Of a stretch of DNA of 64,000 bases, positions 28,957 to 62,491 are shown one piece after another. The notes under the pieces are model-generated. The model saw only the letters and a program-made list of their open reading frames with translations, made no database searches and had not been told where the DNA came from. The number at the start of each line of letters is the position of its first letter. Position 1 is the first letter of the stretch. The stretch covers positions 64,001-128,000 of the forward strand of contig JAVJNR010000009.1 of assembly GCA_040217195.1 (NCBI GenBank). The letters are read 5' to 3'. The stretch comes from Leptospiraceae bacterium. Its GTDB lineage: Bacteria; Spirochaetota; Leptospiria; Leptospirales; Leptonemataceae. A program made the translations under genes and the position numbers.

Positions 28957-28972
28957 CCCCCCGAACAGGGGG
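28957..28972 (+). promoter_or_regulatory. 7-2-7 palindromic box, copy 1
   Basis: ccccccg-aa-caggggg followed by ttt, in the divergent intergenic region upstream of cyclase 1. Confidence 0.75.
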
Positions 28973-28999
28973 TTTCGGAAGGCAGAAACTGTAATTCTG

Positions 29000-29028
29000 T
29001 TGCTGCCGGCATTGCAGCACATCATACT
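29000..29028 (+). promoter_or_regulatory. Candidate sigma70 promoter for cyclase 1
   Basis: TTGCTG-17 nt-CATACT, starting 43 nt after the start of box 1. Confidence 0.5.
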
Positions 29029-29039
29029 GCCGGCCCGTT

Positions 29040-32000
29040 ATGGAATGCCGGATCTTTTCACTTCGAAGCCACCGTTGCCGACGCTGGGTTCTAACGCTAT
29101 TTGTGTTTTCGCTCTTAGCCGGTTGTTCTCAAGTTGAGCAAGCACCCCGTTCTGTCCAAAAGGGGATCCTGGAAATTAAAGAAAACCGGCTGGACACAGA
29201 CGTTCTGGACCTAAATGGAGAATGGCATTTCCAGTCCGAATTTCTGGCTCCAGAGAAATGGAAAGAACGATTGCCTACCATCGGGGTTTCAGAATCCGAA
29301 GGACGTAATCTGCGATCTATCGAAGGCTCATGGACAATGGCCACCGAACTGGATCCTGCATTACCATCGGATGGACGTGCAAGCTATGCTCTGAAATGGC
29401 TTCTATCGGATCCAGAGAGCTACAACGATCTGGCCCTGAAAATTCCAACCATTAACACTTCGTATCAGCTTTTTCTGAACGGACAACTGCTGCTAGAGAT
29501 GGGAGATATTCAGTCCCGATCCAGAACTCTTACAGATGCGATGAGACCCAGGATCGTTCGAATCCCCGGTGAAATCCTGGAAAAAGAAAATGAAATCCTG
29601 ATAAACGTAGCCAACTACGGACACAGACAGGCCGGGCTCTGGTCCGCTCCCAGGCTGGGCAATGAAAGTTATCTGCGAAACCAGGATGAAAGATCCGTGG
29701 CCATGGGGCTGTTTCTGGCCGGTGGACTGGTTCTGATTGGTCTGTATCATCTGGGCCTATTCCTTACTCGAAGAAGCGAAAGTGCTCCTCTGTATTTCGC
29801 GCTTTACTGTATTCTGGTAGCACTCTGGGCCGCCCAGAGCGGGGAAAAGCTACTGGCCCGTCTTATTTCAGGCCTGGATGGTGAAACGGCACTTCGACTG
29901 GAATATATTTGTCTGTACCTTTCCGTGGCCTCCTTTCTCATGTTCGCCCGCCGATTGTATCGGGAGGATATGCCCCGCTGGCCGGCAAGATTTGTAGGAG
30001 CATTCGCACTTCTAAGTTCAGTCTCTGGTTTAGTTCTACCATTAAGGCAATTTGTCTGGACTCTCCCACCCATGCAGATCGCCGCTCTGGCAGCTGTAGC
30101 AATCTGTACTTTCTGGACTGTTCAGATTCTTCGAAGGAAAAGACTGGGAGCCAGACCGGTGGCTTTTTCGCTGGCGATCCTGGCGCTAACAGTAACCAAC
30201 GATGTACTGGTAGCTATGTCCATACTTCCTGGGATCTACCTGGCCCAGTACGGACTAATGATATTCATTGTAGGCCAATCGTTCGCCCTTTCCACACGTC
30301 TTTCCAATGCATTCAATGAACTGGAAGATCTATCCCGGGATCTGGAAACCAGAGTGGATCAGCGAACCGGCGAACTGGATGCATTGAATGAGCTTACACG
30401 ATCCGTAAACGAAAGCCAGGACCTGGGATTCATTGTAAGCCGTACATCGGACTTCATGGTGAAGCGTCTGGGTATGCGACGGATGTTTCTATTTATGATC
30501 CATACGCAGGACAACACCCTTCGTGGCAACGGAGGACAGATTGGAGATCTTCCAGAAGAAGACCGACAATTCTTCGAAGATCTTCGCACACCCATTGAGC
30601 CCGATCTGGGCACACTGTATCGCACCATTCAAAGAAAGAAGACACTATACCTTGATTTCAGCCGGGTACGTCCGCCGGAATCGATGATCGACCGTCGGGT
30701 GGTGGAACGGCTAAAGATGACCTCGGTGGTACAGATACCGGCCATGGTGGATGGCAAAGTGCTGGGAGTGGCCACCATAGATCCAGGAAGCAAGAAACTG
30801 AACCGACACGATTTGTCGCGCCTGGAGGCTGTAGTGGCGCAGATCTCTGGTGCCGTTCAAAAGCAATTTCTGCTTCAGGCCGTAGAAGAAGAAAACCAGG
30901 AGGTTAAAGAGTCCAAAGCCCTGGCGGATAAAGAACAGAAAAACAGCGAAATCCTGGCCGAACTGTCCCGGGTAGCCATTGAAAGCAAGGACATCGACTC
31001 CATTCTCATCGCCATGCAGAAACCGGTGACTGAGCTTGTAGGTCCACACGGAATCACCATCTATTTGCCGGACCCGGAAGCCACACTGTTAAGCGCCCGT
31101 TCCGTCATCCATACCGGCACTCTGGTTTCGCCGGAGGATCTACCGAACAGCATACGCTATGTTGCTCTGAAGCCTGAAAGCGGTACTCTACACCGATGCT
31201 TCTCCCGGGCAAAAACAATGTATCTACCGCGAATATCAAAAGCCTTTCTGGAAACCTCGCCGGTGGACCTGGCCATCCAAAGCCACTATCAGCTTACCTG
31301 GTGCTATCATATACCCCTGGTTGTAAACGATCGAGTGATTGGCATCGCATCTCTGGCGGGTCAGCAGCCGTCTTCTCTGGGTTTTCAGGACAAGCTATAT
31401 CTGGAAAGGATGATCGCCCAGGTGGCCGGCGCCATTCAAATGCAGGAGTTACTGCATACCATCGAACTGGAAAAGGAAACAGCCCATTTACTACAACGGG
31501 AATCCACGGCCCTGGCTGATTTTACCAGGTTGCTGAATCAAAGAGCGGATCTAAACTCCATTGTAGAAGAGGTGTGTCGCTACGCCGTGCAGTCCCTGGG
31601 ACTCCGGGGCGCCTTTATCGCTATAGTAGATGATGTAGAACATGAATTCCAGAGCATTGGCGGATCTGGTATAGATTACACCTATCAGCAGGAGATATTC
31701 GTCCGGGGATCCAGGGTATCCATAAATGCAGATGCTGGTCTGTACTTCAGTGTCTATCAACGAAAGAAGTCATTGTATCTTCCTCGAATTCCTTCCGGTC
31801 AGGGCCCGTTCAATGCTATGCTTGCGGATTTATTTGAGCTACAAAGCTTTGCGTTGATTCCTCTGCTTCTGGAAGACAGGGTAATTGGACTCATGGCAGT
31901 GGATCCCGGAAAACGGAAGCTTTCCAGGCAGGATCTGAAGCGACTGGAAACCTATGCTGATCATGTGGCAGGGGCCATAAACAATGCCAGTCTGTTCCAA

Positions 32001-34055
32001 CGAGTGGAGGAACAGCGAAGCAGCATCGAAGGACTGGCTCGAATTACGCGAATCGCAGCCTCCACAGACAATCTGGACGAAATCCTGGATCAGATCTTTG
32101 CCTATGTTCATAGAAGATACGGTATCGCATCCGGAGTGGTAATGCTACCCAATCCGGACGGAACCGAACTGGTAAGCTACCGGGTCTTTTCCTACGAGGA
32201 TCGGGACGCTCTGGTCCTGCACGATGCCTTTGCATACGCCCAGAACCTGCGGCTTCCCATCGCAGAATCCGGAGGGATCCTGGCCAGAACCTTCCTTCGC
32301 GGTAAACCCTTCTATGTGGCCGATGCCCGCCGGTTAGGTGTCTCAGACCGGGAGTATCCAGGGGCAGAGATGGACCGAGAGATAGCAAACAACCTAAAAT
32401 ACCGCGGCTATTTCAGCCTGCCCATGCACGTCAAAGAAGAGCCTGTGGCACTGTTAAATTTTACCGCATACAAAGAAAGCTTCAAACTGAATCGAAGCGT
32501 GCGAGAGGAATTAAAGACCCTTGCAGATCAATTGGCCGGCATCATTCGCACCAACAGCCTGGTCCGGGCTGTGCGCGAAGAAAGCAGAAGAGCCGCCCAG
32601 GCAAAAAAAGAAACCGATATTCTGGCCAGGCTTTCCAGGAAGGCCAACGAAACCACAAATCTGCAGATGCTCAGTCAGGGAGTGTTCGATGTACTTAGAG
32701 AAACCCTGAATCTGCAAAATCAGGGACTGTTTCTGGTAAACGACACCGATACAGAATTGGTTCCGGTACATTTTGACACCCATGAGAATATTCAGAACTG
32801 GGATACCGAATTTCGCGTACCTTTAAAGCCCGAAGGAGGCACTCTGTTCAAGACCTGGACCAGACGAAAATCCACCTATCTGCCCCGACTTCCGTTGCAG
32901 GGGGCGGCCTGGCCGGACCTGGAAATTGTGCGAAGGCTCAAGATTACCTCCGTTTTACAGATTCCACTGATTGTTACAGACCGGGTGGTGGCCATTTTTG
33001 CCTGCGGACCCACACGCTCCCTGTCCCGGGAAGAGATCCGATCCGCAGAAAGGTATTGCGAACAGATCGCCGGTGCAGTTCGAGTCATAGCTCTTTTGCA
33101 GGCCACTCAGGAAGCCAGGGAAGAGGCGGTGGTGGCCAAAGAGGAGGCTGAAGTGGCTCGCGCCGAATCCGATGCGCTTCTGGAAAATGTGCTGCCCAGC
33201 GCAGCCGCCCGGGAGCTCAAGGAAAGAGGACATGTGGAGCCCATCTATTATGATTCCGTTTCTGTGCTGTTTACAGACTTCGTGGGATTCACAAAAGCGG
33301 CGGCCAATTTGAGTCCGGCGGAACTCATCCAGGAGCTGGATGGCTGCTTTTCCCAGTTCGATGAAGTAAGCTGGCGCAACTCTATGGAAAAACTAAAGAC
33401 CATCGGCGATGCCTACATGTGCGCCGGTGGGCTTCCCGTGCCCAACGAAGGGCATGCCATCGATGCCTGCCTTACAGCTCTTGAGTTTAGAAGCTTTATG
33501 AAACAAATGGCCGAAGTCAAGCAACAACTGGGATTTCAATTCTGGCAGATTCGAATTGGTATCCACAGCGGTCCGGTAACGGCCGGGGTAATCGGTCAAA
33601 ACAAGTTCGCCTATGATATCTGGGGCGATACTGTAAACGTGGCCAGTCGAATGGAGTCATCCGGCAGCCCCGGAATGGTAAACATCTCCGGAGCCACGTA
33701 TGATCTGGTAAAAGATCTGTTCGAATGCGAGCATCGAGGCAAGGTGCAGGCCAAAGGAAAAGGAGAAATGGATATGTATTTTCTTCATCGAATCAAGCCA
33801 GAGCTTTCTGCAGATGAAGATGGTCTTCTGCCCAATGCAATGTTTGAGCTTGCACGCACCGATATGGACATGGAGGAGCTGGATGAACTGCGACGGGATG
33901 TGGCAGTCCTGAAGGGCGAAGTCTCCACGGAAGCAGCGGGGAATTCTAATAAGAATGGATCCAATTCCGGCCCTGACAGCCCGGGACGCAAAAAGAAAAA
34001 ACTGGCCGGGGCTCGTCCTCTTTCTGATATAGACGATAGTCGACAGGGATGGTAA
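29040..34055 (+). CDS. Giant adenylate cyclase 1: 7TM-DISM-type sensor, 5 GAF-like modules, class III cyclase, conserved tail
   Basis: Lipobox-like LAGC; 7TM; five repeats ending QISGA/QVAGA/HVAGA/QLAGI/QIAGA; FTDFVGFT, KTIGDAYM, YDIWGDTVNVASRMES. Confidence 0.92.
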   Translation: MECRIFSLRSHRCRRWVLTLFVFSLLAGCSQVEQAPRSVQKGILEIKENRLDTDVLDLNGEWHFQSEFLAPEKWKERLPTIGVSESEGRNLRSIEGSWTMATELDPALPSDGRASYALKWLLSDPESYNDLALKIPTINTSYQLFLNGQLLLEMGDIQSRSRTLTDAMRPRIVRIPGEILEKENEILINVANYGHRQAGLWSAPRLGNESYLRNQDERSVAMGLFLAGGLVLIGLYHLGLFLTRRSESAPLYFALYCILVALWAAQSGEKLLARLISGLDGETALRLEYICLYLSVASFLMFARRLYREDMPRWPARFVGAFALLSSVSGLVLPLRQFVWTLPPMQIAALAAVAICTFWTVQILRRKRLGARPVAFSLAILALTVTNDVLVAMSILPGIYLAQYGLMIFIVGQSFALSTRLSNAFNELEDLSRDLETRVDQRTGELDALNELTRSVNESQDLGFIVSRTSDFMVKRLGMRRMFLFMIHTQDNTLRGNGGQIGDLPEEDRQFFEDLRTPIEPDLGTLYRTIQRKKTLYLDFSRVRPPESMIDRRVVERLKMTSVVQIPAMVDGKVLGVATIDPGSKKLNRHDLSRLEAVVAQISGAVQKQFLLQAVEEENQEVKESKALADKEQKNSEILAELSRVAIESKDIDSILIAMQKPVTELVGPHGITIYLPDPEATLLSARSVIHTGTLVSPEDLPNSIRYVALKPESGTLHRCFSRAKTMYLPRISKAFLETSPVDLAIQSHYQLTWCYHIPLVVNDRVIGIASLAGQQPSSLGFQDKLYLERMIAQVAGAIQMQELLHTIELEKETAHLLQRESTALADFTRLLNQRADLNSIVEEVCRYAVQSLGLRGAFIAIVDDVEHEFQSIGGSGIDYTYQQEIFVRGSRVSINADAGLYFSVYQRKKSLYLPRIPSGQGPFNAMLADLFELQSFALIPLLLEDRVIGLMAVDPGKRKLSRQDLKRLETYADHVAGAINNASLFQRVEEQRSSIEGLARITRIAASTDNLDEILDQIFAYVHRRYGIASGVVMLPNPDGTELVSYRVFSYEDRDALVLHDAFAYAQNLRLPIAESGGILARTFLRGKPFYVADARRLGVSDREYPGAEMDREIANNLKYRGYFSLPMHVKEEPVALLNFTAYKESFKLNRSVREELKTLADQLAGIIRTNSLVRAVREESRRAAQAKKETDILARLSRKANETTNLQMLSQGVFDVLRETLNLQNQGLFLVNDTDTELVPVHFDTHENIQNWDTEFRVPLKPEGGTLFKTWTRRKSTYLPRLPLQGAAWPDLEIVRRLKITSVLQIPLIVTDRVVAIFACGPTRSLSREEIRSAERYCEQIAGAVRVIALLQATQEAREEAVVAKEEAEVARAESDALLENVLPSAAARELKERGHVEPIYYDSVSVLFTDFVGFTKAAANLSPAELIQELDGCFSQFDEVSWRNSMEKLKTIGDAYMCAGGLPVPNEGHAIDACLTALEFRSFMKQMAEVKQQLGFQFWQIRIGIHSGPVTAGVIGQNKFAYDIWGDTVNVASRMESSGSPGMVNISGATYDLVKDLFECEHRGKVQAKGKGEMDMYFLHRIKPELSADEDGLLPNAMFELARTDMDMEELDELRRDVAVLKGEVSTEAAGNSNKNGSNSGPDSPGRKKKKLAGARPLSDIDDSRQGW

Positions 34056-34099
34056 ACCCTGAACCTGGAATGCCAGGGCCATTCCCGAGGCAGAACGAT

Positions 34100-34780
34100 T
34101 TAAATCAACTGCAACTCCTGAACCTTTCGAACCAGCTCCGCCCGATTGTGTACCTCAAGCTTCTTGTATATACTCTTCACGTAATCGTGCACTGTATGAG
34201 GACTTAGCAATAAGAACTCGGCCACGGATTTGATAGTTTTTCCTCGCACCATAAGCTCCAGAATCTGACGCTCCCGATCGGTCAAATTTGGCCCGGAAAG
34301 AGGGGCCTTCTGAAAGGAGGACATGACTCGCAATGCAATGGTGGGAGTTATCATGGCTCCACCTCCCAGCACAACGTGAATGGCATCGGCCAGGCTGGAA
34401 AGTTCAGATTTAAGAAGGTAACCTTTTACTCCGTTCTGGATGGCCTGGAAAATAGCTTCATCCGAAGTCAGGTTGCTCAGAATGATAATAGGAAGGTCCG
34501 GTTGCTTCAATGCCAGAATTCCAGCCAGTTGAATGCCGCTTATTCCAGATAGATCAATATCCAGAAGCAATAGATCCAGTTCCAACCGTGTTTCATCGCG
34601 CAAGAATAACTCGGCTGAATTCCAGGAGTGCACAGGAGGACGAACCACCGAAATGGCAGTGAGCTCAGAGATTAGATGATCCCTGTATACAGGGTCATTT
34701 TCAACGACTCCGACTCTGGAAGCCTTACTTCCCGGCCCTTCATCTGGAGTATTTTGGTTATCCATTATTTGTTCTTTCAT
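34100..34780 (-). CDS. NarL/FixJ-family response regulator (REC + LuxR HTH)
   Basis: VVEND, LLDID, ILSN, GYLLKS; LTDRERQILEL...LSPHTVHDYVKSIYKKLEVHNRAEL. Confidence 0.95.
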   Translation of the reverse strand: MKEQIMDNQNTPDEGPGSKASRVGVVENDPVYRDHLISELTAISVVRPPVHSWNSAELFLRDETRLELDLLLLDIDLSGISGIQLAGILALKQPDLPIIILSNLTSDEAIFQAIQNGVKGYLLKSELSSLADAIHVVLGGGAMITPTIALRVMSSFQKAPLSGPNLTDRERQILELMVRGKTIKSVAEFLLLSPHTVHDYVKSIYKKLEVHNRAELVRKVQELQLI

Positions 34781-34847: not shown

Positions 34848-34863
34848 CCCCCTGTTCAGGGGG
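34848..34863 (-). promoter_or_regulatory. 7-2-7 palindromic box, copy 2 (perfect arms)
   Basis: ccccctg-tt-caggggg on +, i.e. ccccctg-aa-caggggg on -; upstream of regulator 1. Confidence 0.75.
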
Positions 34864-34884: not shown

Positions 34885-36774
34885 TTAATAGGGCAACTTC
34901 GCTCGAAAACAATAGGACTCTCCCAGAATTCGCACCCTGGTTACGCCGCCCATTTTACCGGCTCTTTTTCGAGCATGGACGGCTAAATGGGTCTCCGGTT
35001 CCTCCTCAGGCTCAGTCCTCGCGTAAATCGGAGCTGCGGCGGCCTCATTACGGATTCGATTCTTCTGACTCAGAAGCAGTGAATCCGATGTTGCAGCCAG
35101 CCGCCACACTGATTCGCCGGTACCGTATTTTAGATCATTCGTGCATAACTCCCGCGTAAGCTGAAGAAAGTCCATACGCAATGCATCATCACTTAGAGCT
35201 CGGTCCAGGGCATCTGGCCTTTCGCATTGAAATATCAGTTCTCGGCCTGAATCCGAATACCTTCGCAATAAGGAAAGCTGAATTCCAGTTGTAGGCTCCC
35301 TGGAGGCAAATTCCAGATCTTCCATGAATAGCAATTCACCGCGAAACAGATCATTTATCTCCGCTACCCTGGTCTGCAGCAATGATGAAGAATTTCCGGG
35401 TCCCAGTTCCCGGGACAACTGAATCTGCAAATCCACAAGCTTGCTTCCCAGAGTATCATGCAGATCATTTTCCAGGGACTGTCTTTGATGAATCAACGCT
35501 TCCTTACTTCTTTCCAGACGTATTCCAAGAGCCTTTTCGTTTTCCAGGCTTTCTTTATGCCTCTGTGCCACACCAATGCCCTGGAACAGTCCAAAGCTTA
35601 CAAATGCTAAAACAGCCAGATCCGCCGCCCCTTCTCGGCTCTGCCAGTTCTGAAAAATGGCCAGCAAACCGAATATACAGACGATGACCATCCCGAATCC
35701 CATGATCCGGGTGCTTCCTGCTTCCTGAAACGATCGAATCAAGACAATGTATGCACAAATAAGCAATACCGGACCGGCCACAAATAAATAGTATCCGTAC
35801 ATCAACATTGCCAGAACCGCCGTATCTGCAATCAGGGTTACTACAAAGGCTCCACAGACCGAAAGCAAGATAGCAAAAGGGATGCGGCCCAGGGCCGATG
35901 GAAACAGTCCGCGAAAATACATGAGCATTAACGGTGGACTCAAGATATTCAGAGTCATATTAAATCGATATTGCCACTCCCAGTTCAACTCCGGCCATAT
36001 ATCATGGATGGTCCTTTCTCCCAGCAAAGGAATGCGAAGAGCAAAACTAAGACATAGAAATGCAAATACCAGATAGGCCTTTTCTCTTCTTTGCATCCAG
36101 AACAGGAAAAGATTATAGAAAGCGATGGCACCCAGAAAGCCCGTGGCCAGGATTTCCAGAAAGTCCCTTCTGTTTTGAAGAGTCTTAATCTTATCTGGCC
36201 AACCTATTTCGAAGGCTGCCCGTAAGCCGCCGCGAAACGTATGGAAATTGGCAATATGCAGGATTATTTCAGTTCGGGGTTTCCGCGGCGTATATTCAAA
36301 GTAAAGTTCACCCCTGGATGGTTCCGTATTTGTTTCGCTTGTGCCTGGATGTCCATCACTGGCAAGAAGTTGTCCATCCACGTATACCCGGGCCGAAGTT
36401 AGCTGCTGGGAGAGAATAAATGCAATTGGTCGACCTTGAGGAAGATCCAGCAAGGTTCGATAGCTTGCATAACCCTTTCCAGTGGTTCCTGGTAGCCGGG
36501 TCCAGGGTCTCATGCCCTGGACTCTAAAATCCGGCTTCAGTCGTTCCGGGGCCGAAGACTGGATTGCCCCGGGTTCAATGTAGCGATTCCAGAAAAAATC
36601 CCAGACAGGCTCCACAACGGAGTATCCCTGGTGCTGCAGAGTATTGAGGTGCACTTTGGAAACTGGGTCACCCTGGATGGAAGCTTCCGAAGGCAATTTC
36701 CCCTGGCAATGAAGAGAGCTCAACACCAGCACGGACAGTAAGAAGCATTTGAGAAAGAAATTGAACACCTGCAC
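34885..36774 (-). CDS. 7TM-DISM-type sensor kinase, HisKA_3-like, with degenerate ATPase domain
   Basis: HIANFHTFRGG extracellular motif, 7TM, H-box LENDLHDTLGSKL, N-box-like ELCTNDLKYG, no G1/G2 boxes. Confidence 0.85.
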   Translation of the reverse strand: MQVFNFFLKCFLLSVLVLSSLHCQGKLPSEASIQGDPVSKVHLNTLQHQGYSVVEPVWDFFWNRYIEPGAIQSSAPERLKPDFRVQGMRPWTRLPGTTGKGYASYRTLLDLPQGRPIAFILSQQLTSARVYVDGQLLASDGHPGTSETNTEPSRGELYFEYTPRKPRTEIILHIANFHTFRGGLRAAFEIGWPDKIKTLQNRRDFLEILATGFLGAIAFYNLFLFWMQRREKAYLVFAFLCLSFALRIPLLGERTIHDIWPELNWEWQYRFNMTLNILSPPLMLMYFRGLFPSALGRIPFAILLSVCGAFVVTLIADTAVLAMLMYGYYLFVAGPVLLICAYIVLIRSFQEAGSTRIMGFGMVIVCIFGLLAIFQNWQSREGAADLAVLAFVSFGLFQGIGVAQRHKESLENEKALGIRLERSKEALIHQRQSLENDLHDTLGSKLVDLQIQLSRELGPGNSSSLLQTRVAEINDLFRGELLFMEDLEFASREPTTGIQLSLLRRYSDSGRELIFQCERPDALDRALSDDALRMDFLQLTRELCTNDLKYGTGESVWRLAATSDSLLLSQKNRIRNEAAAAPIYARTEPEEEPETHLAVHARKRAGKMGGVTRVRILGESYCFRAKLPY

Positions 36775-36944: not shown

Positions 36945-37727
36945 CTACATCAAGGACAGTTCCTGTACCTTTCGAACAAGCTCCGCCCGATTATGCACCT
37001 CCAGTTTCTTGTAGATGCTCTTTACATGATGATGAACTGTATGCGGGCTCAAGAGTAAAAACTCTGCCACCGAAGCGATGGTTTTTCCTTCCACCATAAG
37101 TTCGAGAATCTGCCTCTCCCGGTCCGTAATCTCCGGCGCCGGACTGCGCTCCTGTCTAAAGGAGGCCATTACACGCAATGCGATGGTAGGAGTAATCATA
37201 GCGCCGCCGCCAAGAACGATATCAATGGCATTCATCAGATTCTCCAGCTCCGATTTCAGCAGGTATCCGTTAACCCCATTCTTTATGGCTTCTACGATGG
37301 CTTCATCGGAAGTAAGATTGCTAAGGATAATGACCGTCAAATCCGGCTGTTTTACCGAAAGAATACCGGAAAGCTGAACGCCGCTAATGCCGGATAAATC
37401 GATGTCCAGAAGTAATAGATCGAGCTCATGCCTTTGTTCATCGCGCAGGAATTGTTCGGCGCTGGGCCAGGTAAGGATGGGCTCCTGAAACCGGCCAGAT
37501 GCCTTCAATTCGGCTACCAGAAAACGGCAGTATCTGGGATCGTTTTCTACCAGGCCAATCCGCAAACCGGTAGGGCGGCCATTTCGTTTGAGACCCGGCG
37601 CCGGAGTGCCTTTGCCCATTTCTTCTCTGGATTCTACTCTGGACCCTTCGCTTCCTTTGAATCCTTCTGATTCTGCGGATTCTCCAGATTCTTCGGATCC
37701 CATGATTCTGTTCGATTCTTCAGACAT
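36945..37727 (-). CDS. NarL/FixJ-family response regulator 2
   Basis: Close paralogue of 34100-34780 with a Ser/Glu/Gly-rich N-terminal extension; start uncertain. Confidence 0.93.
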   Translation of the reverse strand: MSEESNRIMGSEESGESAESEGFKGSEGSRVESREEMGKGTPAPGLKRNGRPTGLRIGLVENDPRYCRFLVAELKASGRFQEPILTWPSAEQFLRDEQRHELDLLLLDIDLSGISGVQLSGILSVKQPDLTVIILSNLTSDEAIVEAIKNGVNGYLLKSELENLMNAIDIVLGGGAMITPTIALRVMASFRQERSPAPEITDRERQILELMVEGKTIASVAEFLLLSPHTVHHHVKSIYKKLEVHNRAELVRKVQELSLM

Positions 37728-55200: not shown

Positions 55201-56182
55201 AGCTGAGGTGGCCAAAGAGGAGGCAGAAGTAGCCCGGGCCGAGTCCGATGCTTTGCTGGAGAATGTGCTGCCCAGCGTAACCGCAAAAGAGCTAAAAGAG
55301 TCCGGCCGAGTGGAACCTGTGTACTTTGACAACGTTTCCGTGATGTTCACAGACTTTGTAGGATTCACAAAGGCAGCGGCCCGGCTGACTCCTGCCGAGC
55401 TTATCCAGGAGCTGGATGGTTGCTTTTCGCAATTCGATGAGGTATCCCGCCGAAACAATCTGGAAAAGCTAAAGACCATTGGTGATGCCTATATGTGCGC
55501 GGGAGGCCTGCCGGTGCCCAACGAAGGTCATGCTATCGATGCCTGCTTGACCGCCCTTGAATTTCGCAGCTTCATGAATCAGATGGCAGCAGTAAAAGGA
55601 CAGCTGGGCTATGAATTCTGGCAGATTCGCATTGGCATACACAGCGGGCCGGTTACGGCCGGCGTCATTGGCCAGAACAAGTTCTCCTACGATATCTGGG
55701 GCGATACGGTAAACGTGGCCAGCCGCATGGAATCCTCGGGCAGCCCGGGAATGGTTAATATTTCAGGTGCCACCTACGAACTCGTCAAAGATCTATTCCA
55801 ATGCGAATATCGAGGCAAAGTTCAGGCCAAGGGAAAGGGCGAACTGGACATGTACTTTGTGCATAGAATCAAGCCGGAACTTTCTGCAGATGAGGGAGGA
55901 CTGCTTCCCAATGCCATGTTTGAGCTTGCACGGACGGATATGGACATGGACGAAATCAATGCCATGAAATCAGAAATCCATGAGAATCATGCCGCCTCCA
56001 GGTATCCAGATAAATCGGAACCTGATACAGGGTCCACACAGGCACAGAATAATACCTCCACTGGTAAGTCGAAAGCCTCAAGCGGCGACCAAAAAGCCGA
56101 TCGGCGCGCCGGGTCGGAAAGAAGAAAACATGCGGGGGCCCGACCACTGTCCGAACTGGACAAAGAAAGACAGGGCTGGTAA
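49292..56182 (+). CDS. Giant adenylate cyclase 3: 7TM-DISM-type sensor, 8 GAF-like modules, class III cyclase, conserved tail
   Basis: ORF 49214-56182; METISQ start at 49292 matches the cyclase 2 start; lipobox-like AIGC; sensor and catalytic domains nearly identical to cyclase 2. Confidence 0.92.
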   Translation: METISQKYSRSGNTKGTGFQLADLLLASILFWLPKRIVSLLAGIPARLRLFFPVRSFMSAAIPGPLFLIALFSMVAIGCFQSARPGPPVARDGVLDLRQWDFESNGSANLSGDWKLVWGQFASPNSPLRNAYDARVPRSWDHLGIEGVSGRGFGTLQLVLQGLPETTSGLTISLPSMTGAYRLYCGESLIAATGTAGNSYETTTPERIPRVAILPTECIKENQAVLTWHVANFRHRTGGGAAELTSTMTIGLPAQTMSSVYRRHLADLSLLAIAFIMALYHLVYWLFRRDDVQLVLFSAVAALFCVRITGTQTLLQQAFPSADFYEIEFMLEYLGYYLLVPVFFSYLRAWYPGEFNRFVSYTLWIIGGLFSATVLFGPVDFYSNYIRYYESVSLAAFLYTLIALGFAIVRKRRGAWILNAGVWIIIGTATHDILGNMGVLQSETYLAQFGFLTFLLSQSSLMAALFSDAFRRAEDLSENLEKKVVSRTGELAREKDRAETARATALAEQLESEILADLAQQANRGTDAKSLLDPLARVLTARLGADRLGLWVARDDGYLELVAGFADGQPTDPKQYSDVVARISTGEKGGILARGYREGRIIYVPRVNRKLLENSPVDREIQSTWKFDWFVNLPLVVDRGSVGMIAASGPRAKRIPRKEIRFLERAAATVASATQKQMLLERIEEEKDAAKKLERETRALAEFTRRLNERQDLNSIVSEVCQYSVNSMALRGAYVTVINEKEREFQSIGGYGLDYNDQQMAFVRSSRVPLSQESGLIYSTYRRKKNVHLRRLRQSSSPVDEYAREILQLNSIAHFPLLLEGNVIGVLAVDPGRRKLSQKDLGKLQNYADQVTGAINNAALLQQVQQQRMSIEGLARITETAASTDNLDEILNQIFHYVHSRFGILSGLVMVPNEDRTELQSIKVHTFEDKESLQLAAAGEYAEGLSVAINLQGGTLARTFLRGRPFYVPDVSRFMETGRNYPGSEIDRDIFQNLRYKGYLALPMTVNKEPVALLNFTSYGADLRLSRADREELGTLADQLAGIIRSRQLAENLSREKKRAEQEKAENEVLANLARRANEGAGIEDILIETSRITEAHCGVSRLGLYLVDTEKNTLELHSFLSSGEVNDERPVPDIIKSIPIEFESGSLAAVVQRMRKMFLPSIRPPFLEASPVDAAQVEFHKFDWFLQAPLMTGGSMIGVLAFVGSQDHRPGLRQRQLMGRIVDQIAGAVQSKQLLDQVEDARRDSEALAELARRADAGADLFEIGELVLDYARAKCGVDTLGLYTVNRELNRLEVQAFARKGPIEPGSVLPDELRFPPLFEQTGSLSQVVSRGRPLYMDRLPERLKRKMSDHDRKNLEFMQFDWFLDIPMIAQEEVIGVIAFAGPARQKLSESERNFLERITVQVSGSVKNRQLLKQVESERNVARTLQKETEGLNQLLKRIAPMEDLEEIMEEVMAFSKDAYDIGVYSLYSVDNERKQMQALAMNFPDHIGPEDRQYIMETPVPLDFRGGAFTIAYRRSPRYTYFKNAKQEGTSPIEEFVSKKYDLTNMVVYPLMEGDQVMVFLNFLTYNKEGLNRDQLSQLSILSDQISGIIRMNGLIREVKEQSVRTEAARKETDMLAELSRKANEATDLEAVSQTLFDHLRESLELDDFCLFVLEPETRLLHAAAWDTSAAEDPETRRWLETTHHKLEPDVGTLYRTYSKKKTTYLPRFPEAFFAPGDRIIVEKLKLTSALQVPLLIQDEVIGFLTSGPRRRLTREEITSVERFCNQVAGAIRATALLNSTAQARQRAENARRETEALAVLSREANETVNLENLSQTVFHLMRQTLDLENFTLFIVDDQDSELLPAKWDTVQDVSEWKRNFRVPLQPDAGTLHRTWSRKRTLYLPAFPEEFGGWADQEIVGNLKIESVLQIPLVVSDRVVGIFACGPTRKLNREEIRSAERYIQQIAGAVRIIALLQATQEAREEAEVAKEEAEVARAESDALLENVLPSVTAKELKESGRVEPVYFDNVSVMFTDFVGFTKAAARLTPAELIQELDGCFSQFDEVSRRNNLEKLKTIGDAYMCAGGLPVPNEGHAIDACLTALEFRSFMNQMAAVKGQLGYEFWQIRIGIHSGPVTAGVIGQNKFSYDIWGDTVNVASRMESSGSPGMVNISGATYELVKDLFQCEYRGKVQAKGKGELDMYFVHRIKPELSADEGGLLPNAMFELARTDMDMDEINAMKSEIHENHAASRYPDKSEPDTGSTQAQNNTSTGKSKASSGDQKADRRAGSERRKHAGARPLSELDKERQGW

Positions 56183-56328: not shown

Positions 56329-56344
56329 CCCCCTGAACAGGGGG
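56329..56344 (+). promoter_or_regulatory. 7-2-7 palindromic box, copy 6 (perfect arms)
   Basis: ccccctg-aa-caggggg then ttttt; TTGCGC at 56372. Confidence 0.75.
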
Positions 56345-56538
56345 TTTTTGCTCCCGGACCAGGAATTGGTATTGCGCATCCCTTACCGTAGTATCTTCTA
56401 ATGCCCCTGAGCAAGGAAACTGGTTTGCTAGCGCCGGGGGATAACCTATTGCTTTCTGTCCAGGATCAGTAACGTTGCGAAAGAGCCGGCGCAGGCAATC
56501 CTTTTTGCCGGACAAAGAGCCACAGAGGAGAATTGGGA

Positions 56539-57015
56539 ATGTCAATACTGACCGATGAAATGATAGGGATCTGGAATGGTCCTGTAATGGGAGCAATCTG
56601 CACCGTAAACTCCCGACTGGAACCGTTCTATACAAGAGTCTGGGGAGCTACCGGGAAAGCCGGAGAAGCAACCATGAATTGTTTTATTCCGGAATCCCTT
56701 TCCGCTCGGCCACTGGCCGATCTCAAAGAACGCCCGAGGCTAGCAATTAACATGGTGGATGCTACCAATTTTTCCGGATACCAATTCAAAGGCCCCTTTC
56801 TGCAATCGATGAAAGCCACCCCCGAGGAAGAAGAGTACCTGGCAGGTATCAAGGCAAATACTCTTCATGTAGTAAGTCAGTTCTTTGGAGCGTCCGCCGG
56901 AGCAGGCTGGGAACGCTATATAATCAGTCCTGCCATTCGCCTGGAAATACAAGTAGAAGAAATCTACAACCAGGCCCCCGGCATGATGACCGCAGAAGAG
57001 AGGAAAATAGTATGA
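56539..57015 (+). CDS. Divergent PNPOx-like split-barrel protein
   Basis: GPVMGAICTVNSRLEP, YQFKG, VEEIYNQAPG; GAGGAG RBS before ATG 56539; ATGA overlap with the next gene. Confidence 0.7.
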   Translation: MSILTDEMIGIWNGPVMGAICTVNSRLEPFYTRVWGATGKAGEATMNCFIPESLSARPLADLKERPRLAINMVDATNFSGYQFKGPFLQSMKATPEEEEYLAGIKANTLHVVSQFFGASAGAGWERYIISPAIRLEIQVEEIYNQAPGMMTAEERKIV

Positions 57016-57422
57016 AGTTGCCCGAAGAGATCAAACCAGCGCTACAGGGTGTCATCCCGGCTACCATCGCCACATGCGATCCATCCGGCAATCCGAATGC
57101 CACTATATTGTCCCAGGTTTTCCCTGTAGACGATGAGCATATTGCATTGTCCCATCAATTCTTTACCAAGACCTACCAGAACATTCGAACACACCCAAAA
57201 GTACACATACAGGTGGTGCATCCTGCCGATTGCACCCCCTGGTTACTGGAAGCGGAATTTGTAAGAGAAGAAACGGAAGGTCCTTTGTTCGAACAGATGG
57301 ATATGCAACTGGAAGCCATTGCTTCCATGTCCGGAATGGCCGATGTATTTAAGCTACACTCCGCTCTTGTTTGCAAGGTCCTGAGCGCATCCATTCTCGA
57401 AGGAGCCCAGAGGCCTGCATGA
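57012..57422 (+). CDS. Pyridoxamine 5'-phosphate oxidase-like (FMN-binding split barrel) protein
   Basis: GVIPATIATCDPSGNPNATILSQV, IALSHQFFTKTYQNI, GPLFEQM, IASMSGMADVFKL. Confidence 0.85.
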   Translation: MKLPEEIKPALQGVIPATIATCDPSGNPNATILSQVFPVDDEHIALSHQFFTKTYQNIRTHPKVHIQVVHPADCTPWLLEAEFVREETEGPLFEQMDMQLEAIASMSGMADVFKLHSALVCKVLSASILEGAQRPA

Positions 57423-57423
57423 C

Positions 57424-60400
57424 ATGAGCTTTGAATCCGAGATCAGCCCGGACGAGGATTCCGCCGTTTGCGTCAACCAGCTGCGGCAGCAACTGGCTCG
57501 CAAGGAAAGAGAGTTCCAGGTGATCCATGAGCTTTCGTCTGAAATCAATACTACGCTGGATCCGGATCGAATCTTCAAGGTTTCCATGGATGGCCTGGAC
57601 CAGGCTTTCGATTTTCACCATTCTCTGATTCTGCTAACTGATGAAGCCGGTAAGAATCTGGAAGTTGTGGCCAGCCATGGTTATCCGGACCCGGGCCTGG
57701 GAGCCACACTGCCGGTGGGCATGGGCGTCATTGGTGTTGCCGCAAAAAGAAAGAAGCTACTGAGATCGGTGGCGATAACCTACCAATCCCTGTATGCTCG
57801 GATGACCATGATGGGAAAGGCAGACCAGGTGAAGAACCGGAGTCCCATGCCCGGGCTGGAAAATGCGGCCAGTCAGATGGCCATTCCACTCATTGTACAG
57901 GATGCTTTGATCGGAATCTATGCGGTGGAAAGCCCGGCGGTGGGGGCCTTTGATTCTCTGGATGAGCAACTTCTTTCCATCATCGGAAGCATGGTGGGTG
58001 CCGCCATAGCAAATGCAAGAACCTATCGGGACGTGGAGGATTTAAGCAGAAACCTGGAACAAAAGGTTCAGCGCCGCACAGAAGAGCTCAATTCTCTAAA
58101 TACACTTACGCGTACAGTAAACCGAAGTCATCAGCTAGAAACGATAGTCCGGGACACAGCGCAATACATGGTAAGACATCTGGCCGTGCGAAAGATGTTT
58201 CTCTTTCTGTTGAACTCTGAAGAAAATGAAATTCGGGGAATGGCAGGCTATTTAGAGACTCTCAGTGATGAACAGCAAGACCTACTAAAAAACTTTCGAG
58301 CCCGGGTGGAGCCAGAGCTGGGCACGTTGTACCGTACTATTCAGCGAAAAAGGACCGTGTACCTGGATCTCACTCGAATCAAGCAGGCCCGCTCTGCAGC
58401 AGACCGGTTTGTTATAGAACAAATTGGACTGAGCAGCGTCATCCAGATTCCTGTTATGGTGAGCGGCCGCGTTCTGGGAGTGGCCTGTATGGATCCTGGC
58501 GGGTTTCGCATGGATCGTGCCGCACTGCGCAAACTGGAATCCGTGGTAGCCCAGATTGCAGGCGCTGCAGACAACGCCTATCTTCTGGAACAGGTAAGCG
58601 CACAGAAACAGGATGCCTTACGAGAACGGGCGGATAGTGAAATTCTGGCAGAAGTGGCCCGCAGAGCAAACGAGGCCCGCAGCAGCGAGGAAATCCTGCA
58701 ATTGATGGCCGAACATGTACTCGGACATTGTGCTGTGAACACCATATCCCTGCGATTGGTAGATCCCACCGGCGAACTGTTGGAAACTCATTCTGTGATA
58801 GAAGACGGCATCCGAACCAGCCTGGACGATTTGCCCGCAGAAATCCGGTCTATACCGCTAAAATATGAAAGCGGAAGTCTGTACCAGGTCTTTTCCAGGA
58901 ATCGCAAGATGTATCTGCCTCGCATCCGGCCCTCCTTTGTGCAGAATTCCCCGGTGGATCAGACCATTCATGCCCATCACGGATTTGAGTGGTTTTTGAA
59001 CGTTCCTCTGTCAATCCAGGGCAGTGTCATCGGCATTTTCAGTTTCGCTGGCAAGAAAGCAAACCTGCCGGACTTTAGAGCGCGATTATTAATGGAACGA
59101 ATGGTTGCACAGGTGGCCGGAGCTGTTCATAGCAAGCAGCTACTGCTGCAGGTTCAGGAAGAAAGAAACATTGCCACACGACTCCAGGAAGAGACAGAAG
59201 GCCTCAATCAATTGCTCAAGCGAATCGCCAGCATTGAAGATATCCAGGAATTGATGAATGTAGTCCAGAAGTATGTTGCGAAGGCATACGATATCCATTA
59301 CTACTCTCTCTACTCCATGGACCCGGAAAACCAACAGGTAGTGCCGACCGCGCTGAACATTCCCGAATGGATTTCAGGAGATGACCTGGAGCATATTCGC
59401 ACGACTCCCGTGCCACTAAATGTTCGATTTGGAGCTCTAAGCGTGGCCTACCGCAGAGTCCCGAATTACACATACTACAGGTCTCTTCGCCCATCCATTG
59501 CTTCCGACATTGAACGATTCATTATCGAAAAATACAGGATGAACAATCTGGTGGTCTACCCATTGATGAATAACAATGAGCCCATCGCTTTCCTGAATTT
59601 TATGACTCACACTGAGGGAGGGCTCAATCGGGAACAACTGAATCAACTCTCTATTTTGAGCGATCAGATCTCCGGCATTATTCGGATGAATGGACTACTT
59701 CGCGAAATAAAAGAAGAAGGGCGAAAGACCGAACAGGCCCGGGCCGAAACCCAGGCTCTGGCCACTCTTTCAAGGCATGCCAACGAAAGCACAAACCTGG
59801 AAAGTATTTGCCACGCTCTTTTTACCTATCTGGAAGATACCCTCAGTCTTACGAACTTCTGTCTATTTATGGTGGATCAGCCCCGGTCCGAGATCTATGT
59901 CGTTGCAGGTGCCGGCGCTGGGTGGTCCACTCACATTCAGGAGTGGACCCGGGATCTGAGAATTAAGTTGGAACCAGAATCCGGCACCCTTTATAGCACG
60001 TATAGTAGGCAAAAACCCATGTACCTTCGGCGAATTCCTGGAAACATGGATTCAGCTGTGGATCTGACCATAGTAGAAAAATTCAATCTTGATTCTATAT
60101 TGCAGGTGCCTCTGGTCATCCAGGGAAATACCATCGGAATACTGGCCTGCGAACCATCCCGAAGGCTCCGCCCGGAAGATATTCAATCCGTTGAACGATT
60201 TTGTAATCAGATCGCAGGCGCCATGCGAACCATGGCTTTGCTTCAGATCACCCAGGAGGCCCGGGAAGAAGCCGTGGTGGCCAAAGAGGAAGCGGAGCAG
60301 GCCCGGGCCGAATCCGATGCACTCCTGGACAATGTGCTTCCGGCTGCTGCAGCAAGAGAACTCAAAGAAACCGGCCGAGTCGAACCCATATACTTTGACT

Positions 60401-61269
60401 CCGTTTCAGTGCTTTTCACAGACTTCGTAGGATTCACCAGGGCGGCCGCCAACCTGACACCTGCCGAACTGATCCAGGAACTGGATGGTTGCTTTTCTCA
60501 GTTCGACGAAGTAAGTCGCAGAAACAACCTGGAAAAACTGAAAACAATCGGCGATGCCTATATGTGTGCAGGCGGTCTCCCGGAACCCGGTAATTCCCAT
60601 CCTGTGGACATCTGCCTGGCTGCACTTGAGCTACGAGCGTTCATGCAGCAAATGGCAGAAGTGAAGCAACAACTGGGATTTCAATTCTGGCAGATTAGAA
60701 TCGGAATTCATACTGGCCCGGTTACCGCCGGCATTATTGGACAGAATAAATTTGCATACGATATCTGGGGAGATACCGTCAACGTAGCCAGCAGAATGGA
60801 GTCCTCCGGAAGTCCCGGTATGATCAACATCTCTGGATCCACGTATTCGCTGGTCAAAAATCTGTTCGAATGCGAACACCGGGGCAAAGTAGAGGCAAAA
60901 GGTAAAGGCGAAATGGATATGTATTTTCTGCATCGTATCAAGCCCGAACTTTCTGCCGATGAAGAAGGATTGCTACCAAATGCAATGTTTGAAATGGCTC
61001 GCACCGATCTGGATAGAGATGAGATCCATTCGCTCAAGCAGGGTCCCTCAGAGACTCCCGGATTTCGATCTTCTGAAAGTTACAGCGAAGGGGCTACCGA
61101 TGAGATAGCTCATTCAGCCACAAATTGCGGGTTTCAGACCTCTTTGAATCAGTCTGATAACAGCGTAGAGAGTGGACAGTGTATTTCGGACAGAAAGCAA
61201 TCCATCCGAAAAAAGCCAGCAGGAGCCCGGCCGCTATCCGAGATCGATGCGGACCGCGAGGGCTGGTAA
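57424..61269 (+). CDS. Soluble adenylate cyclase 4: 5 GAF-like modules, class III cyclase, conserved tail
   Basis: No TM segment; first GAF is canonical (VASHGY, GVIGVAA, SQMAIPL, AVES, AFD), followed by four family-specific modules; intact catalytic motifs. Confidence 0.92.
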   Translation: MSFESEISPDEDSAVCVNQLRQQLARKEREFQVIHELSSEINTTLDPDRIFKVSMDGLDQAFDFHHSLILLTDEAGKNLEVVASHGYPDPGLGATLPVGMGVIGVAAKRKKLLRSVAITYQSLYARMTMMGKADQVKNRSPMPGLENAASQMAIPLIVQDALIGIYAVESPAVGAFDSLDEQLLSIIGSMVGAAIANARTYRDVEDLSRNLEQKVQRRTEELNSLNTLTRTVNRSHQLETIVRDTAQYMVRHLAVRKMFLFLLNSEENEIRGMAGYLETLSDEQQDLLKNFRARVEPELGTLYRTIQRKRTVYLDLTRIKQARSAADRFVIEQIGLSSVIQIPVMVSGRVLGVACMDPGGFRMDRAALRKLESVVAQIAGAADNAYLLEQVSAQKQDALRERADSEILAEVARRANEARSSEEILQLMAEHVLGHCAVNTISLRLVDPTGELLETHSVIEDGIRTSLDDLPAEIRSIPLKYESGSLYQVFSRNRKMYLPRIRPSFVQNSPVDQTIHAHHGFEWFLNVPLSIQGSVIGIFSFAGKKANLPDFRARLLMERMVAQVAGAVHSKQLLLQVQEERNIATRLQEETEGLNQLLKRIASIEDIQELMNVVQKYVAKAYDIHYYSLYSMDPENQQVVPTALNIPEWISGDDLEHIRTTPVPLNVRFGALSVAYRRVPNYTYYRSLRPSIASDIERFIIEKYRMNNLVVYPLMNNNEPIAFLNFMTHTEGGLNREQLNQLSILSDQISGIIRMNGLLREIKEEGRKTEQARAETQALATLSRHANESTNLESICHALFTYLEDTLSLTNFCLFMVDQPRSEIYVVAGAGAGWSTHIQEWTRDLRIKLEPESGTLYSTYSRQKPMYLRRIPGNMDSAVDLTIVEKFNLDSILQVPLVIQGNTIGILACEPSRRLRPEDIQSVERFCNQIAGAMRTMALLQITQEAREEAVVAKEEAEQARAESDALLDNVLPAAAARELKETGRVEPIYFDSVSVLFTDFVGFTRAAANLTPAELIQELDGCFSQFDEVSRRNNLEKLKTIGDAYMCAGGLPEPGNSHPVDICLAALELRAFMQQMAEVKQQLGFQFWQIRIGIHTGPVTAGIIGQNKFAYDIWGDTVNVASRMESSGSPGMINISGSTYSLVKNLFECEHRGKVEAKGKGEMDMYFLHRIKPELSADEEGLLPNAMFEMARTDLDRDEIHSLKQGPSETPGFRSSESYSEGATDEIAHSATNCGFQTSLNQSDNSVESGQCISDRKQSIRKKPAGARPLSEIDADREGW

Positions 61270-61426
61270 TCGGAACCGCATTCGGACGTCGATGGAAATA
61301 TTTTTAGTCAATTGTGTAACCCGGATTTATGGATCATCGAATTTGAGAACCGGAAGGGACCGAGGAAAATAATGTAATCGGGCCGCCATATTCCGAAATA
61401 CTGGATATTACATAAGGGGTTCCCAT

Positions 61427-62419
61427 TTGAAAGCAGCAGTGATTGATCGTTTCGGCGATGCGGAGGTTCTGCGCATTGCCGAGGATTTACCAGGGCCTGA
61501 AATCCAGGCAAACCAGGTTCTTGTTCGAGTAGCGGCCGCCGGGATCAACCCGCTGGATCTCCGAACTCGTGAAGGGGATCTTCGCTGGATTCGCGGCAAT
61601 CGCTTTCCCATGATTCTGGGCAATGACCTTTCTGGCATTGTGGTGGAATGCGGAAAGGATGTCTCTCAATTTCATCCGGGAGATCTTGTATTTGGCATGA
61701 TAGATCCCAATCCGGTCCTCGCCTGGAATGGATTCACTCAATGCGGCGCGTATGCTGAATTTGCAGTAGCCCGGGCAGATACCCTGGCCCATAAACCGGA
61801 GAGCATCTCGCACGTGGAGGCAGCCTCCATTCCCCTCGTTGCACTCACTGCGTATCAGGCCCTGGGCACAGACTTGAAGAATAAAGACGTACTGATCAAT
61901 GGAGCATCCGGTGGCGTGGGGACCTTTGCGGTTCAGCTGGCACGAGCCGCCGGCGCCCGGGTTACAGCTTTTTGCAGTGAGCCCAATCGGGAGGCTGTGC
62001 GCGATCTGGGGGCCCGGGAGGTATATGATTATCGAAAACAATCCGTTACAGACCTGCCCGGCCAATTCGACGTAATCTATGACGTGGCAGTCACCCTCAA
62101 GTATTCAGAATGCCACGAGCTACTGAAACCCGATGGCCGATTCATCTCTAACCTGATCAGCCCGTCGAACTTCCTATCCACTATTCTACAACCTGCGCTT
62201 AAGCCATTTTGCCATGGCCGCATAAACACCTACGCCTTCGTAAAGCCGTCAGGTCAGGAACTTGAAGAAATCTCCAAACTGATTGAGCTGGGTCACATTC
62301 GGCCGGTTATCGACCGAGTCTTCGATTTGCAAGATGTGGCGGCAGCCCATGAGCATAGTCAGAAAACCAGGGGTTACGGAAAAGTAGTCCTGAATGTGGC
62401 CGAAAACCGGGTGGACTGA
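61427..62419 (+). CDS. NAD(P)H-dependent oxidoreductase, MDR/Qor-like
   Basis: AAGINPLD, LGNDLSG, GAYAEF, LTAYQAL, INGASGGVG, IRPVIDRVF, GKVVL; TTG start. Confidence 0.92.
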   Translation: MKAAVIDRFGDAEVLRIAEDLPGPEIQANQVLVRVAAAGINPLDLRTREGDLRWIRGNRFPMILGNDLSGIVVECGKDVSQFHPGDLVFGMIDPNPVLAWNGFTQCGAYAEFAVARADTLAHKPESISHVEAASIPLVALTAYQALGTDLKNKDVLINGASGGVGTFAVQLARAAGARVTAFCSEPNREAVRDLGAREVYDYRKQSVTDLPGQFDVIYDVAVTLKYSECHELLKPDGRFISNLISPSNFLSTILQPALKPFCHGRINTYAFVKPSGQELEEISKLIELGHIRPVIDRVFDLQDVAAAHEHSQKTRGYGKVVLNVAENRVD

Positions 62420-62475
62420 CAGTTTTCTTGAGGCCTGCAGTAGCCGCAGACCGGATTAGTTAGGCAGAACCGCAC

Positions 62476-62491
62476 TCCCCTGATCAGGTGG
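62476..62491 (+). promoter_or_regulatory. 7-2-7 palindromic box, copy 7
   Basis: tcccctg-at-caggtgg then tttt; TTGGCA at 62519. Confidence 0.68.

Follow-up and report, generated by a model that had tools for sequence, protein, structure and literature searches.

A 16-bp palindrome as the predicted operator of a NarL/FixJ-type regulator clade and its receptor adenylyl cyclases in Leptospirales

A 64,000-nucleotide stretch from the 4.6 Mb genome of an uncultured Leptospirales member (GenBank assembly GCA_040217195.1, contig JAVJNR010000009.1, positions 64,001 to 128,000), hereafter the window, carries seven copies of a 16-bp palindrome amid a cluster of genes for adenylyl cyclases, membrane sensors and NarL/FixJ-type response regulators. 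These copies raise the question of which protein reads them and whether they are a peculiarity of this one cluster. An earlier note on this DNA had taken them for a local regulon under two NarL-type regulators encoded in the cluster itself. Comparison across the order indicates that the palindrome is very probably the operator of one Leptospirales NarL/FixJ-type regulator clade, with binding predicted from the sequences, and supports a site that belongs to this whole clade and is not a local oddity. The conserved core regulon comprises the regulator, its sensor and adenylyl cyclases with seven-transmembrane (7TM) and GAF domains.

The palindrome and the regulator clade that it follows

Each copy is a pair of inverted heptamers with a 2-bp spacer and lies in intergenic DNA ahead of a gene, the half-site register being predicted. 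All seven claimed copies are present at their claimed starts and intergenic (Table 1), their assigned genes agree with the layout of open reading frames (ORFs) and Pfam domains, copies 1 and 4 do lie between divergent genes, and the first 28 kb, said to hold no comparable copy, contains 0 matrix hits of at least 17 bits. From copy 1 to copy 7 the mismatches to CCCCCTGNNCAGGGGG number 1, 0, 3, 2, 2, 0 and 2, so that two of the seven are perfect. Matches with up to three mismatches occur 12 times in the window compared with a mean of 3.86 and a maximum of 10 in 100 shuffles; the five matches besides the seven copies are weak and none reaches 17 bits. With a matrix derived from 30 distinct sites in related genomes, sites which were found via the window's own matrix and are not fully independent of it, the window yields seven hits of at least 17 bits, and 200 resampled windows give a mean of 0.06 and at most one.

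To follow the site through the order, 131 Leptospirales genomes were searched with an alignment of the sensor C-terminus, and loci were chosen by this alignment and not by the motif. From the 44 places listed in the high-scoring class (at least 190 bits) 20 loci were fetched, together with 20 of the lower classes. Of the 20 high-scoring loci, 17 have a site of at least 17 bits at the start of the regulator operon; at two of the exceptions the contig ends before the promoter and the third carries an 11-bit variant in the correct place. None of the 20 sister-module loci reaches 13 bits, with 11-12-bit variants near the module in L181 and L182, and the 29 NarL-like loci from other phyla all score below 10 bits. 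The site likewise lies directly upstream of the best regulator orthologue (57-82% protein identity) in 10 of 11 relative loci, the eleventh having just 63 bases of upstream contig. Five orthologous promoters of the genus share 88-100% identity in the core, 20-28% in the preceding 40 bases and 30-50% in the following 50. These footprints, with the site at the head of the regulator's own operon in relatives, support the autoregulation that had been claimed.

Counting palindromic 4-mer dyads without any seed, with the source genome left out and the ends of the upstream regions set by hand, recovers CCCC-N6..8-GGGG in 24-26 of 27 clade upstream regions; elsewhere no dyad exceeds 4 of 20 upstream regions. 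A palindrome specific to the sister clade was sought in the sister-module upstream regions and not found. A tree of 42 regulators unites all 24 site-bearing ones in a single branch (support 99/96). The consensus across the order is YCCCC-HRWWYD-GGGGR with CCCCCTGAACAGGGGG as optimum. Gene order varies, with the regulator before or after the sensor and the cyclase in tandem or divergent, and through all of this the site remains at the head of the operon. The regulator-sensor pair has a close cyclase homologue next to it in 12 of 20 fresh loci and, in the first set, in 9 of 13 clade loci; the cyclase label was rejected for L073, L074 and L078, where the 7TM matches are to hybrid kinases. Sites, positions and their tie to the clade were computed directly. 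The regulator is the sole DNA-binding protein common to the site-bearing modules, and we infer that it binds the palindrome directly.

Two full-length regulators of this clade are encoded in the window, and regulator 1 appears to be the better candidate binder. Relatives with a single regulator of this type carry the same sites, including a GGTGG variant (G004), so regulator 1 suffices as an explanation. Its recognition helix reads TVHDYVK and that of regulator 2 TVHHHVK, most of the clade having TV(H/Q)GYVK; at the middle position the clade has G or D and regulator 2 has H, like most of the site-less sister clade. Regulator 2 also sits on a longer branch of the regulator tree (0.33 versus 0.11) and may bind differently. 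The earlier assignment of the site to the local regulators is supported in refined form: an operator of their clade is favoured by phylogenetic footprinting, by co-occurrence and by the failure of a terminator reading (below), and regulator 2 is the doubtful member. From alignments with DesR, VraR and DevR and from the NarL helix, Lys188, Val189 and Lys192 of NarL presumably map on H, D and K of TVHDYVK. Through these residues of helix 9 NarL reads bases, according to a passage in PMC10853779. The best Protein Data Bank matches of the regulators are DesR (E 1e-19), VraR, DevR and NarL (E 5e-15), and their NCBIfam NarL scores of 70 and 83 bits lie below the cut-off of 250. The closest relatives come from Leptospiraceae, Leptonemataceae and Leptospirales assemblies. 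Both the acceptor Asp and the Lys are kept (Asp74 and Lys124 in regulator 1), with an acidic pocket of E-N-D. Escherichia coli NarL, like DesR, VraR and DevR, shares the receiver (REC) and LuxR-type helix-turn-helix (HTH) architecture and the inverted heptamers 2 bp apart. The present system differs from NarL in a half-site made of a C tract followed by TG, in the E-N-D pocket, in a partner without the G1 and G2 motifs of kinases, and in a small regulon centred on receptor cyclases.

Promoter placement, genome-wide targets and competing readings

The central dinucleotide had been read as AA on the strand of the downstream gene. It does read so at the named genes (AT in copy 7), but as a mark of polarity it is rejected because over 67 gene-oriented rows from this genome and its relatives the two centre positions are nearly even in A and T (37 A to 30 T and 35 A to 32 T). 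The real asymmetry is a one-sided A/T tract: in the same 67 rows, 16 have TTT toward the gene, 36 have AAA on the far side and 15 have neither. Where the T tract faces the gene, TTG starts 27 bases after the site in 13 of 16 rows and 28 bases after it in two, several of these rows being homologous promoters; it is present at 27-28 at all five plus-strand copies of the window and L196 repeats the offset of 27. For the other classes, a TTG or RTGAC begins 19-21 bases after the site in 13 of the 36 AAA rows and 9 of the 15 rows with neither tract. We read these elements as putative sigma-70 -35-like hexamers. If they are -35 boxes, the site centres near -70.5 on the T-tract side and near -63.5 on the A-tract-distal side. 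A sigma-54 reading of the downstream TTGC was rejected, as by eye GG stands at the required distance in copy 6 alone.

The offset of the TTG would point to class I activation, and NarL offers a parallel: it binds 7-2-7 sites and activates from -67.5 and -77.5 in the account of PMC7419079, with which the upstream position of the sites here is compatible. Activation is put forward as an inference because no -10 box stands at constant spacing and, as a passage in PMC5243855 has it, Leptospira promoters fit E. coli matrices poorly. The poor fit leaves an opening for a reading in which the same regulator is a repressor or a dual switch and its sensor a divergent but ordinary ATP-dependent kinase, as does the fact that the promoter positions are predicted from sequence. 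We regard this combination as unlikely, though worth keeping in mind; a TTG at a constant 27-28 bases downstream implies a site that lies well upstream of the likely -35, which speaks against a repressor, and the kinase part is taken up with the sensors below.

With a C/G stem, a 4-base loop and a T tract, the repeats could also be intrinsic terminators or attenuator hairpins. Copies 1, 2, 5 and 6 have folding energies of -10.7 to -12.5 kcal/mol, with 3-5 T next on the plus strand, TTT lies 3' of all seven copies on that strand regardless of gene direction, and several sites stand just 3' of a stop codon (copies 2, 3 and 7; L153). Copies 3, 4 and 7, however, fold at a mere -3.5 to -4.2 kcal/mol, the T tract of copies 2 and 3 lies on the strand opposite both flanking genes, four of the nine sites of the genome (below) lie between divergent genes, and a terminator scan of 28-41 kb does not list copies 1-4. 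Among 60 physical sites, which were picked by matrix so that the comparison is partly circular, pairs 2/15 and 4/13 are C-G in all 60 without a swap and changes at pair 3/14 break pairing in 10; it is the sequence and not the pairing that is conserved. A true terminator-shaped look-alike scores just 13 bits, and Rfam gave 0 gathering-score matches in the window. A terminator origin is accordingly very improbable. The look-alike, at G000:C10:721471 of the source genome (G000), has a 3-base centre, a longer stem, T on the minus strand and a position after a stop codon.

A matrix scan of all 4.6 Mb places the seven copies and two further sites, C3:202666 and C10:307849, as its nine best hits. All nine are intergenic by crude ORF calling, and the next-ranked hit, after a score gap, lies in coding DNA. 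The regulon, called local in the earlier note, is concentrated in the window and, with two strong sites elsewhere, not purely local. The C3 site precedes an MBOAT gene by 78 bp and is divergent from flagellin genes. At C10 the site stands 92 bp upstream of an operon for an S-adenosylmethionine (SAM) methyltransferase, an MpaB-like oxygenase, a cyclic nucleotide (cNMP)-binding protein and a cytochrome P450.

That the copies are leftovers of tandem duplication of a cyclase cassette, or direct repeats used in recombination, is the least probable of the explanations considered. The T tract does lie on the same strand at all seven, and the cluster has tandem-paralogous cyclases and regulator-sensor pairs, a third regulator remnant and homologous flanks at copies 4 and 5, where copy 5 duplicates the promoter of copy 4 (next 50 bases 74% identical). 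The flanks of all other copy pairs are unrelated (downstream at most 46% identical, upstream 10-40%), sites on other contigs precede unrelated genes, in one genus most genomes have just one site, placed at the operon head, and no recombinase is among the Pfam matches for 24.5-64 kb.

A further reading would assign the site to an unlinked Leptospirales factor, for example a CRP/FNR-type cyclic AMP (cAMP) receptor acting in feedback, with the regulator merely one of its targets. The main targets of the site are indeed adenylyl cyclases, the distal C10 operon encodes a cNMP-binding protein, and some genomes without the module carry the exact pattern. We consider this reading quite improbable. Among the 46 class III cyclase family matches of the source genome only those in the window carry the site, and in L062, L064, L149, L153, L156 and L168 the site precedes a regulator with no cyclase nearby. 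The palindrome is also, we take it, unlike a CRP site. A search of these 131 genomes for the exact pattern YCCCCHRWWYDGGGGR, with the reversed pattern as control, found it in 36 of 40 genomes with a high-scoring sensor (control 5) and in 11 of 91 without one (control 14), and within genus g22 in 16 of 18 sensor holders and 1 of 19 others. Genomes without the module are thus at the control rate, unlike what a global factor would give.

Several observations weigh against the assignment of the palindrome to the regulator clade, or against parts of it. The pattern was tuned on loci already inspected, and of the 7 holders not inspected earlier it matches 5, the exceptions being G050 and G132. An exact match is missing from four holders in all (G012, G050, G065 and G132), and the 11 non-holders with one include G030, which has the sister module only and carries a convincing 21-bit intergenic site beside FG-GAP genes. 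The co-occurrence counts overstate the support, as related genomes do not count independently and the site is a single feature that one clade inherited. Copies 4 and 5, and probably 2 and 3, are duplicates. Accessory targets are labile: outside the source genome the site is present at 2 of 9 orthologues of the methyltransferase operon, strongly at 1 of 3 SRPBCC orthologues and weakly at another, and at 1 of 2 orthologues of the hypothetical-PNPOx operon, and no close MBOAT orthologue was found in five genus relatives. A -10 box at constant spacing after the TTG was sought with sigma-70 matrices and not found, for which reason the -35 reading is loose, and the two spacings of TTG and RTGAC differ by 7 bases, not a helical turn.

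Sites and their neighbours elsewhere are varied. The C10 operon (G000:C10:302774-307757, L039) encodes in order the methyltransferase, the MpaB/rubber-oxygenase-like protein, the cNMP-binding protein with a methyltransferase-like part and the P450, faces a converging FAD oxidoreductase gene, keeps the same order in G004, and is possibly a small lipid or secondary-metabolite pathway. A perfect site lies upstream of a 476-aa protein without a Pfam match (weak delta-60 repeat) in two genus relatives (L042:5866-7296 and L050:5053-6483). The palindrome stands beside FG-GAP repeat genes at L075:9772 (G030, which has no sensor of the clade) and L042:7381 (G004), and GGDEF genes follow sites in L068 and L070. 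In G014 a cyclase-hemerythrin fusion (L061:4373-5686) diverges from the regulator across a common site. L058 (G040:C1:547840-551217) has two site pairs 106 bp apart, which recur at a distance of 3256 bp; the DNA between them contains no long ORF, and the arrangement is either a promoter block that was duplicated or an insertion.

The partner sensors and an uncalled kinase-fold domain

The sensors that accompany the regulators have a 7TMR-DISM input and end in a domain called by neither Pfam nor NCBIfam. Pfam HisKA_3 matches 8 of 33 sensors at E 0.001-0.1 and HATPase_c matches none. A structural model of this C-terminus (mean pLDDT, the predicted local distance difference test score, 81) has the catalytic domains of DesK and VraS as best matches (Z 15.0 and 14.7); the top match has a root-mean-square deviation of 2.4 over 121 residues, DesK-DesR complexes come first in another structure search, and DesK is also a weak sequence match. 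The new element is that these 7TMR-DISM partners end in a DesK-like fold of dimerization and histidine phosphotransfer (DHp) and catalytic and ATP-binding (CA) domains, in which the His and the N-box are kept and the G1 and G2 motifs are lost. The fold and the missing motifs were computed directly. In the 34 clade members the His and N-box are always kept, and all 34 have Q/E-x-N at the G1 position, a position inferred from the strand order of the model; His and N-box (E-x-T-N-D-x-K) are invariant in the 33 aligned sensors. L074, an ammonium transporter-SpoIIE protein, was dropped from the alignments as a wrong row. The glycine-rich G2 lid is missing, with G-x-G after the N-box in 3 of 34 clade members and 5 of 68 high-scoring homologues. 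The two window sensors are the only ones in the source genome.

These features leave the usual kinase-to-regulator step in doubt because the partner sensors are without the G1 and G2 ATP-binding motifs. The likeness to Bacillus subtilis DesK and Staphylococcus aureus VraS covers the DHp with an LHDxLG His box, the CA fold and the NarL-type regulator partner; the differences are the 7TMR-DISM input, Q-x-N in place of D-x-G and the missing glycine-rich G2. In Caulobacter, ChpT is described in PMC9981736, in the passage concerned, as a pseudo-kinase histidine phosphotransferase with a DHp His and a functionally degenerate CA domain. The domain here resembles it in its His-bearing DHp and degenerate CA, and sister hybrids place it after HisKA-HATPase-REC; it differs in belonging to a HisKA_3-type lineage, in being fused to a seven-helix membrane sensor and in having no donor kinase in the module. 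In the structure search with the sensor model the phosphotransferase-receiver complex 4qpj ranks 42nd (Z 10.9).

An ordinary ATP-dependent kinase, the second half of the repressor reading above, would agree with the invariant His and N-box and with the many family members that stand alone beside a regulator, with no other kinase. Against it, the G1 Asp and the G2 glycines are missing in the site-linked clade, and a scan of 24 family proteins shows the domain behind a complete HATPase-REC unit, where a phosphotransferase would be expected, in 11 of them. Lower-scoring family members, in turn, keep G-x-G in 100 of 109 cases, though the G1 Asp is mostly lost, and in view of the invariant N-box and the G2 of the wider family these sensors may have another mode of nucleotide binding. 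On balance we lean toward site-linked sensors that do not autophosphorylate from ATP.

The wider sensor-domain family has 854 representatives at E 0.001, occurs in 104 of the 131 Leptospirales genomes and was met outside the order once, weakly, in a sample of 121 genomes of the phylum. Homologues occur in cultured species, among them Leptospira meyeri, L. levettii, L. terpstrae and L. bourretii. The sister hybrids combine a 7TMR-DISM or other input with HisKA, HATPase and REC and end in the uncalled DHp-CA domain (L169:2026-5274, L174:3259-6450, L178, L180, L182 and L186; P0049, P0084, P0093, P0095 and P0114). They adjoin sister-clade NarL-type regulators, where no palindrome was found.

The cluster and a proposed circuit

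The cyclase motifs FTDF, KTIGD and DxWGDTVNxASRME, covering metal, substrate and transition-state residues, are intact and were computed directly; the K/D pair specifies ATP. Cyclase 4 has GAF repeats and a cyclase domain without a 7TM match, and a zinc-type dehydrogenase gene (Pfam) lies between it and copy 7. The cluster grew by tandem duplication, and the regulator remnant is the trace of a third module duplication. Contig C9 of the source genome (82 kb) has 53% G+C compared with 48-49% in the rest. In L. interrogans, class III cyclases with 7TMR or GAF inputs are annotated as lic10024 and lic12327 in the part of PMC5100919 concerned, and by annotated domain type they resemble the module cyclases; no regulator or operator for cyclases of this type was found in the searched literature.

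Table 1. Palindrome copies and genes of the cluster, in window coordinates
Feature	Position	Strand	Description
Cyclase 0	27386..28735	-	Membrane class III cyclase (ORF of 449 aa), 222 bp from copy 1 and divergent from it
Operator copy 1 (CCCCCCGAACAGGGGG)	28957..28972		Between divergent cyclase 0 and cyclase 1; TTT, then TTGCTG at 29000
Cyclase 1	29040..34055	+	7TMR-DISM, GAF repeats and class III cyclase with adenylate-type K/D pair
Regulator 1	34100..34780	-	REC and LuxR-type HTH, 226 aa; best candidate binder
Operator copy 2, perfect	34848..34863		68 bp upstream of regulator 1; ATGACA 20 bases behind on the minus strand (34827-34822)
Sensor 1	34885..36774	-	7TMR-DISM_7TM, HisKA_3-like DHp (His439), CA fold with N-box, Q-x-N for G1, no G2
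Regulator 2	36945..37727	-	Recent paralogue within the clade, recognition helix altered
Operator copy 3, weakest, 3 mismatches	37791..37806		64 bp upstream of the regulator 2 ORF; overlaps the sensor 2 stop codon; ATGACG 20 bases behind on the minus strand
Sensor 2	37799..40015	-	Paralogue of sensor 1 (50% identical); same degenerate CA domain
Operator copy 4	40032..40047		Between divergent sensor 2 and cyclase 2; TTGCCA at 40075
Cyclase 2	40113..48713	+	7TMR-DISM, about 9 GAF and cyclase, 2866 aa
Third regulator remnant	48782..48973	-	Between cyclase 2 and copy 5; consists of the HTH part, 58% identical to regulator 1
Operator copy 5	49146..49161		Upstream of cyclase 3; TTGCCA at 49189
Cyclase 3	49214..56182	+	7TMR-DISM, about 7 GAF and cyclase
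Operator copy 6, perfect	56329..56344		Upstream of the hypothetical-PNPOx-cyclase 4 operon; TTGCGC at 56372
Operon	56533..61269	+	Hypothetical protein 56533-57015, PNPOx-like 57012-57422, cyclase 4 57424-61269
Operator copy 7	62476..62491		Upstream of the SRPBCC gene; TTGGCA at 62519
SRPBCC protein	62597..63088	+	Polyketide cyclase/lipid-binding (Pfam)

In the circuit that we propose, an outside ligand would act on the 7TMR-DISM sensor, which would set the phosphorylation state of regulator 1. The sensor would do so probably without normal autophosphorylation from ATP and more likely as a ligand-gated phosphotransferase or phosphatase. The dimeric regulator 1, perhaps also regulator 2, would bind the palindrome upstream of the -35-like hexamer and recruit RNA polymerase in class I fashion to its own gene, to the sensor gene and to the receptor cyclases. 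The capacity to make cAMP would rise through this positive loop, and lineage-specific genes (SRPBCC, the PNPOx operon, the methyltransferase-oxygenase-P450 operon and MBOAT) would have been added and lost. More tentatively still, Leptospirales may own a two-component branch in which the domain of the hybrids is a ChpT-like phosphotransferase, the clade studied here gates a NarL-type regulator without autophosphorylation, and the one conserved job of the regulator is to induce cyclases with the same kind of receptor domain.

Neither the motif strings nor a description of the module were found in the literature searched, which covered main texts with few subscription journals. Few transcription-factor sites were known in Leptospira and its relatives according to a 2017 statement in PMC5243855, and for this little-charted order the analysis yields a precisely defined 16-bp site, a named candidate for the protein and a compact regulon that lends itself to testing. 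The operator alone joins a well-known class; the surprising part for the specialist is the sensor, which exposes a widespread kinase-fold family annotated merely as '7TM-DISM' or 'signaling protein' and whose missing ATP motifs pose a mechanistic question. The module links two-component control to cAMP synthesis in a cyclase-rich order. If the proposed circuit is true, it would be of the feed-forward kind: a ligand would begin by turning on the genes of the cAMP-producing receptors that it acts on.

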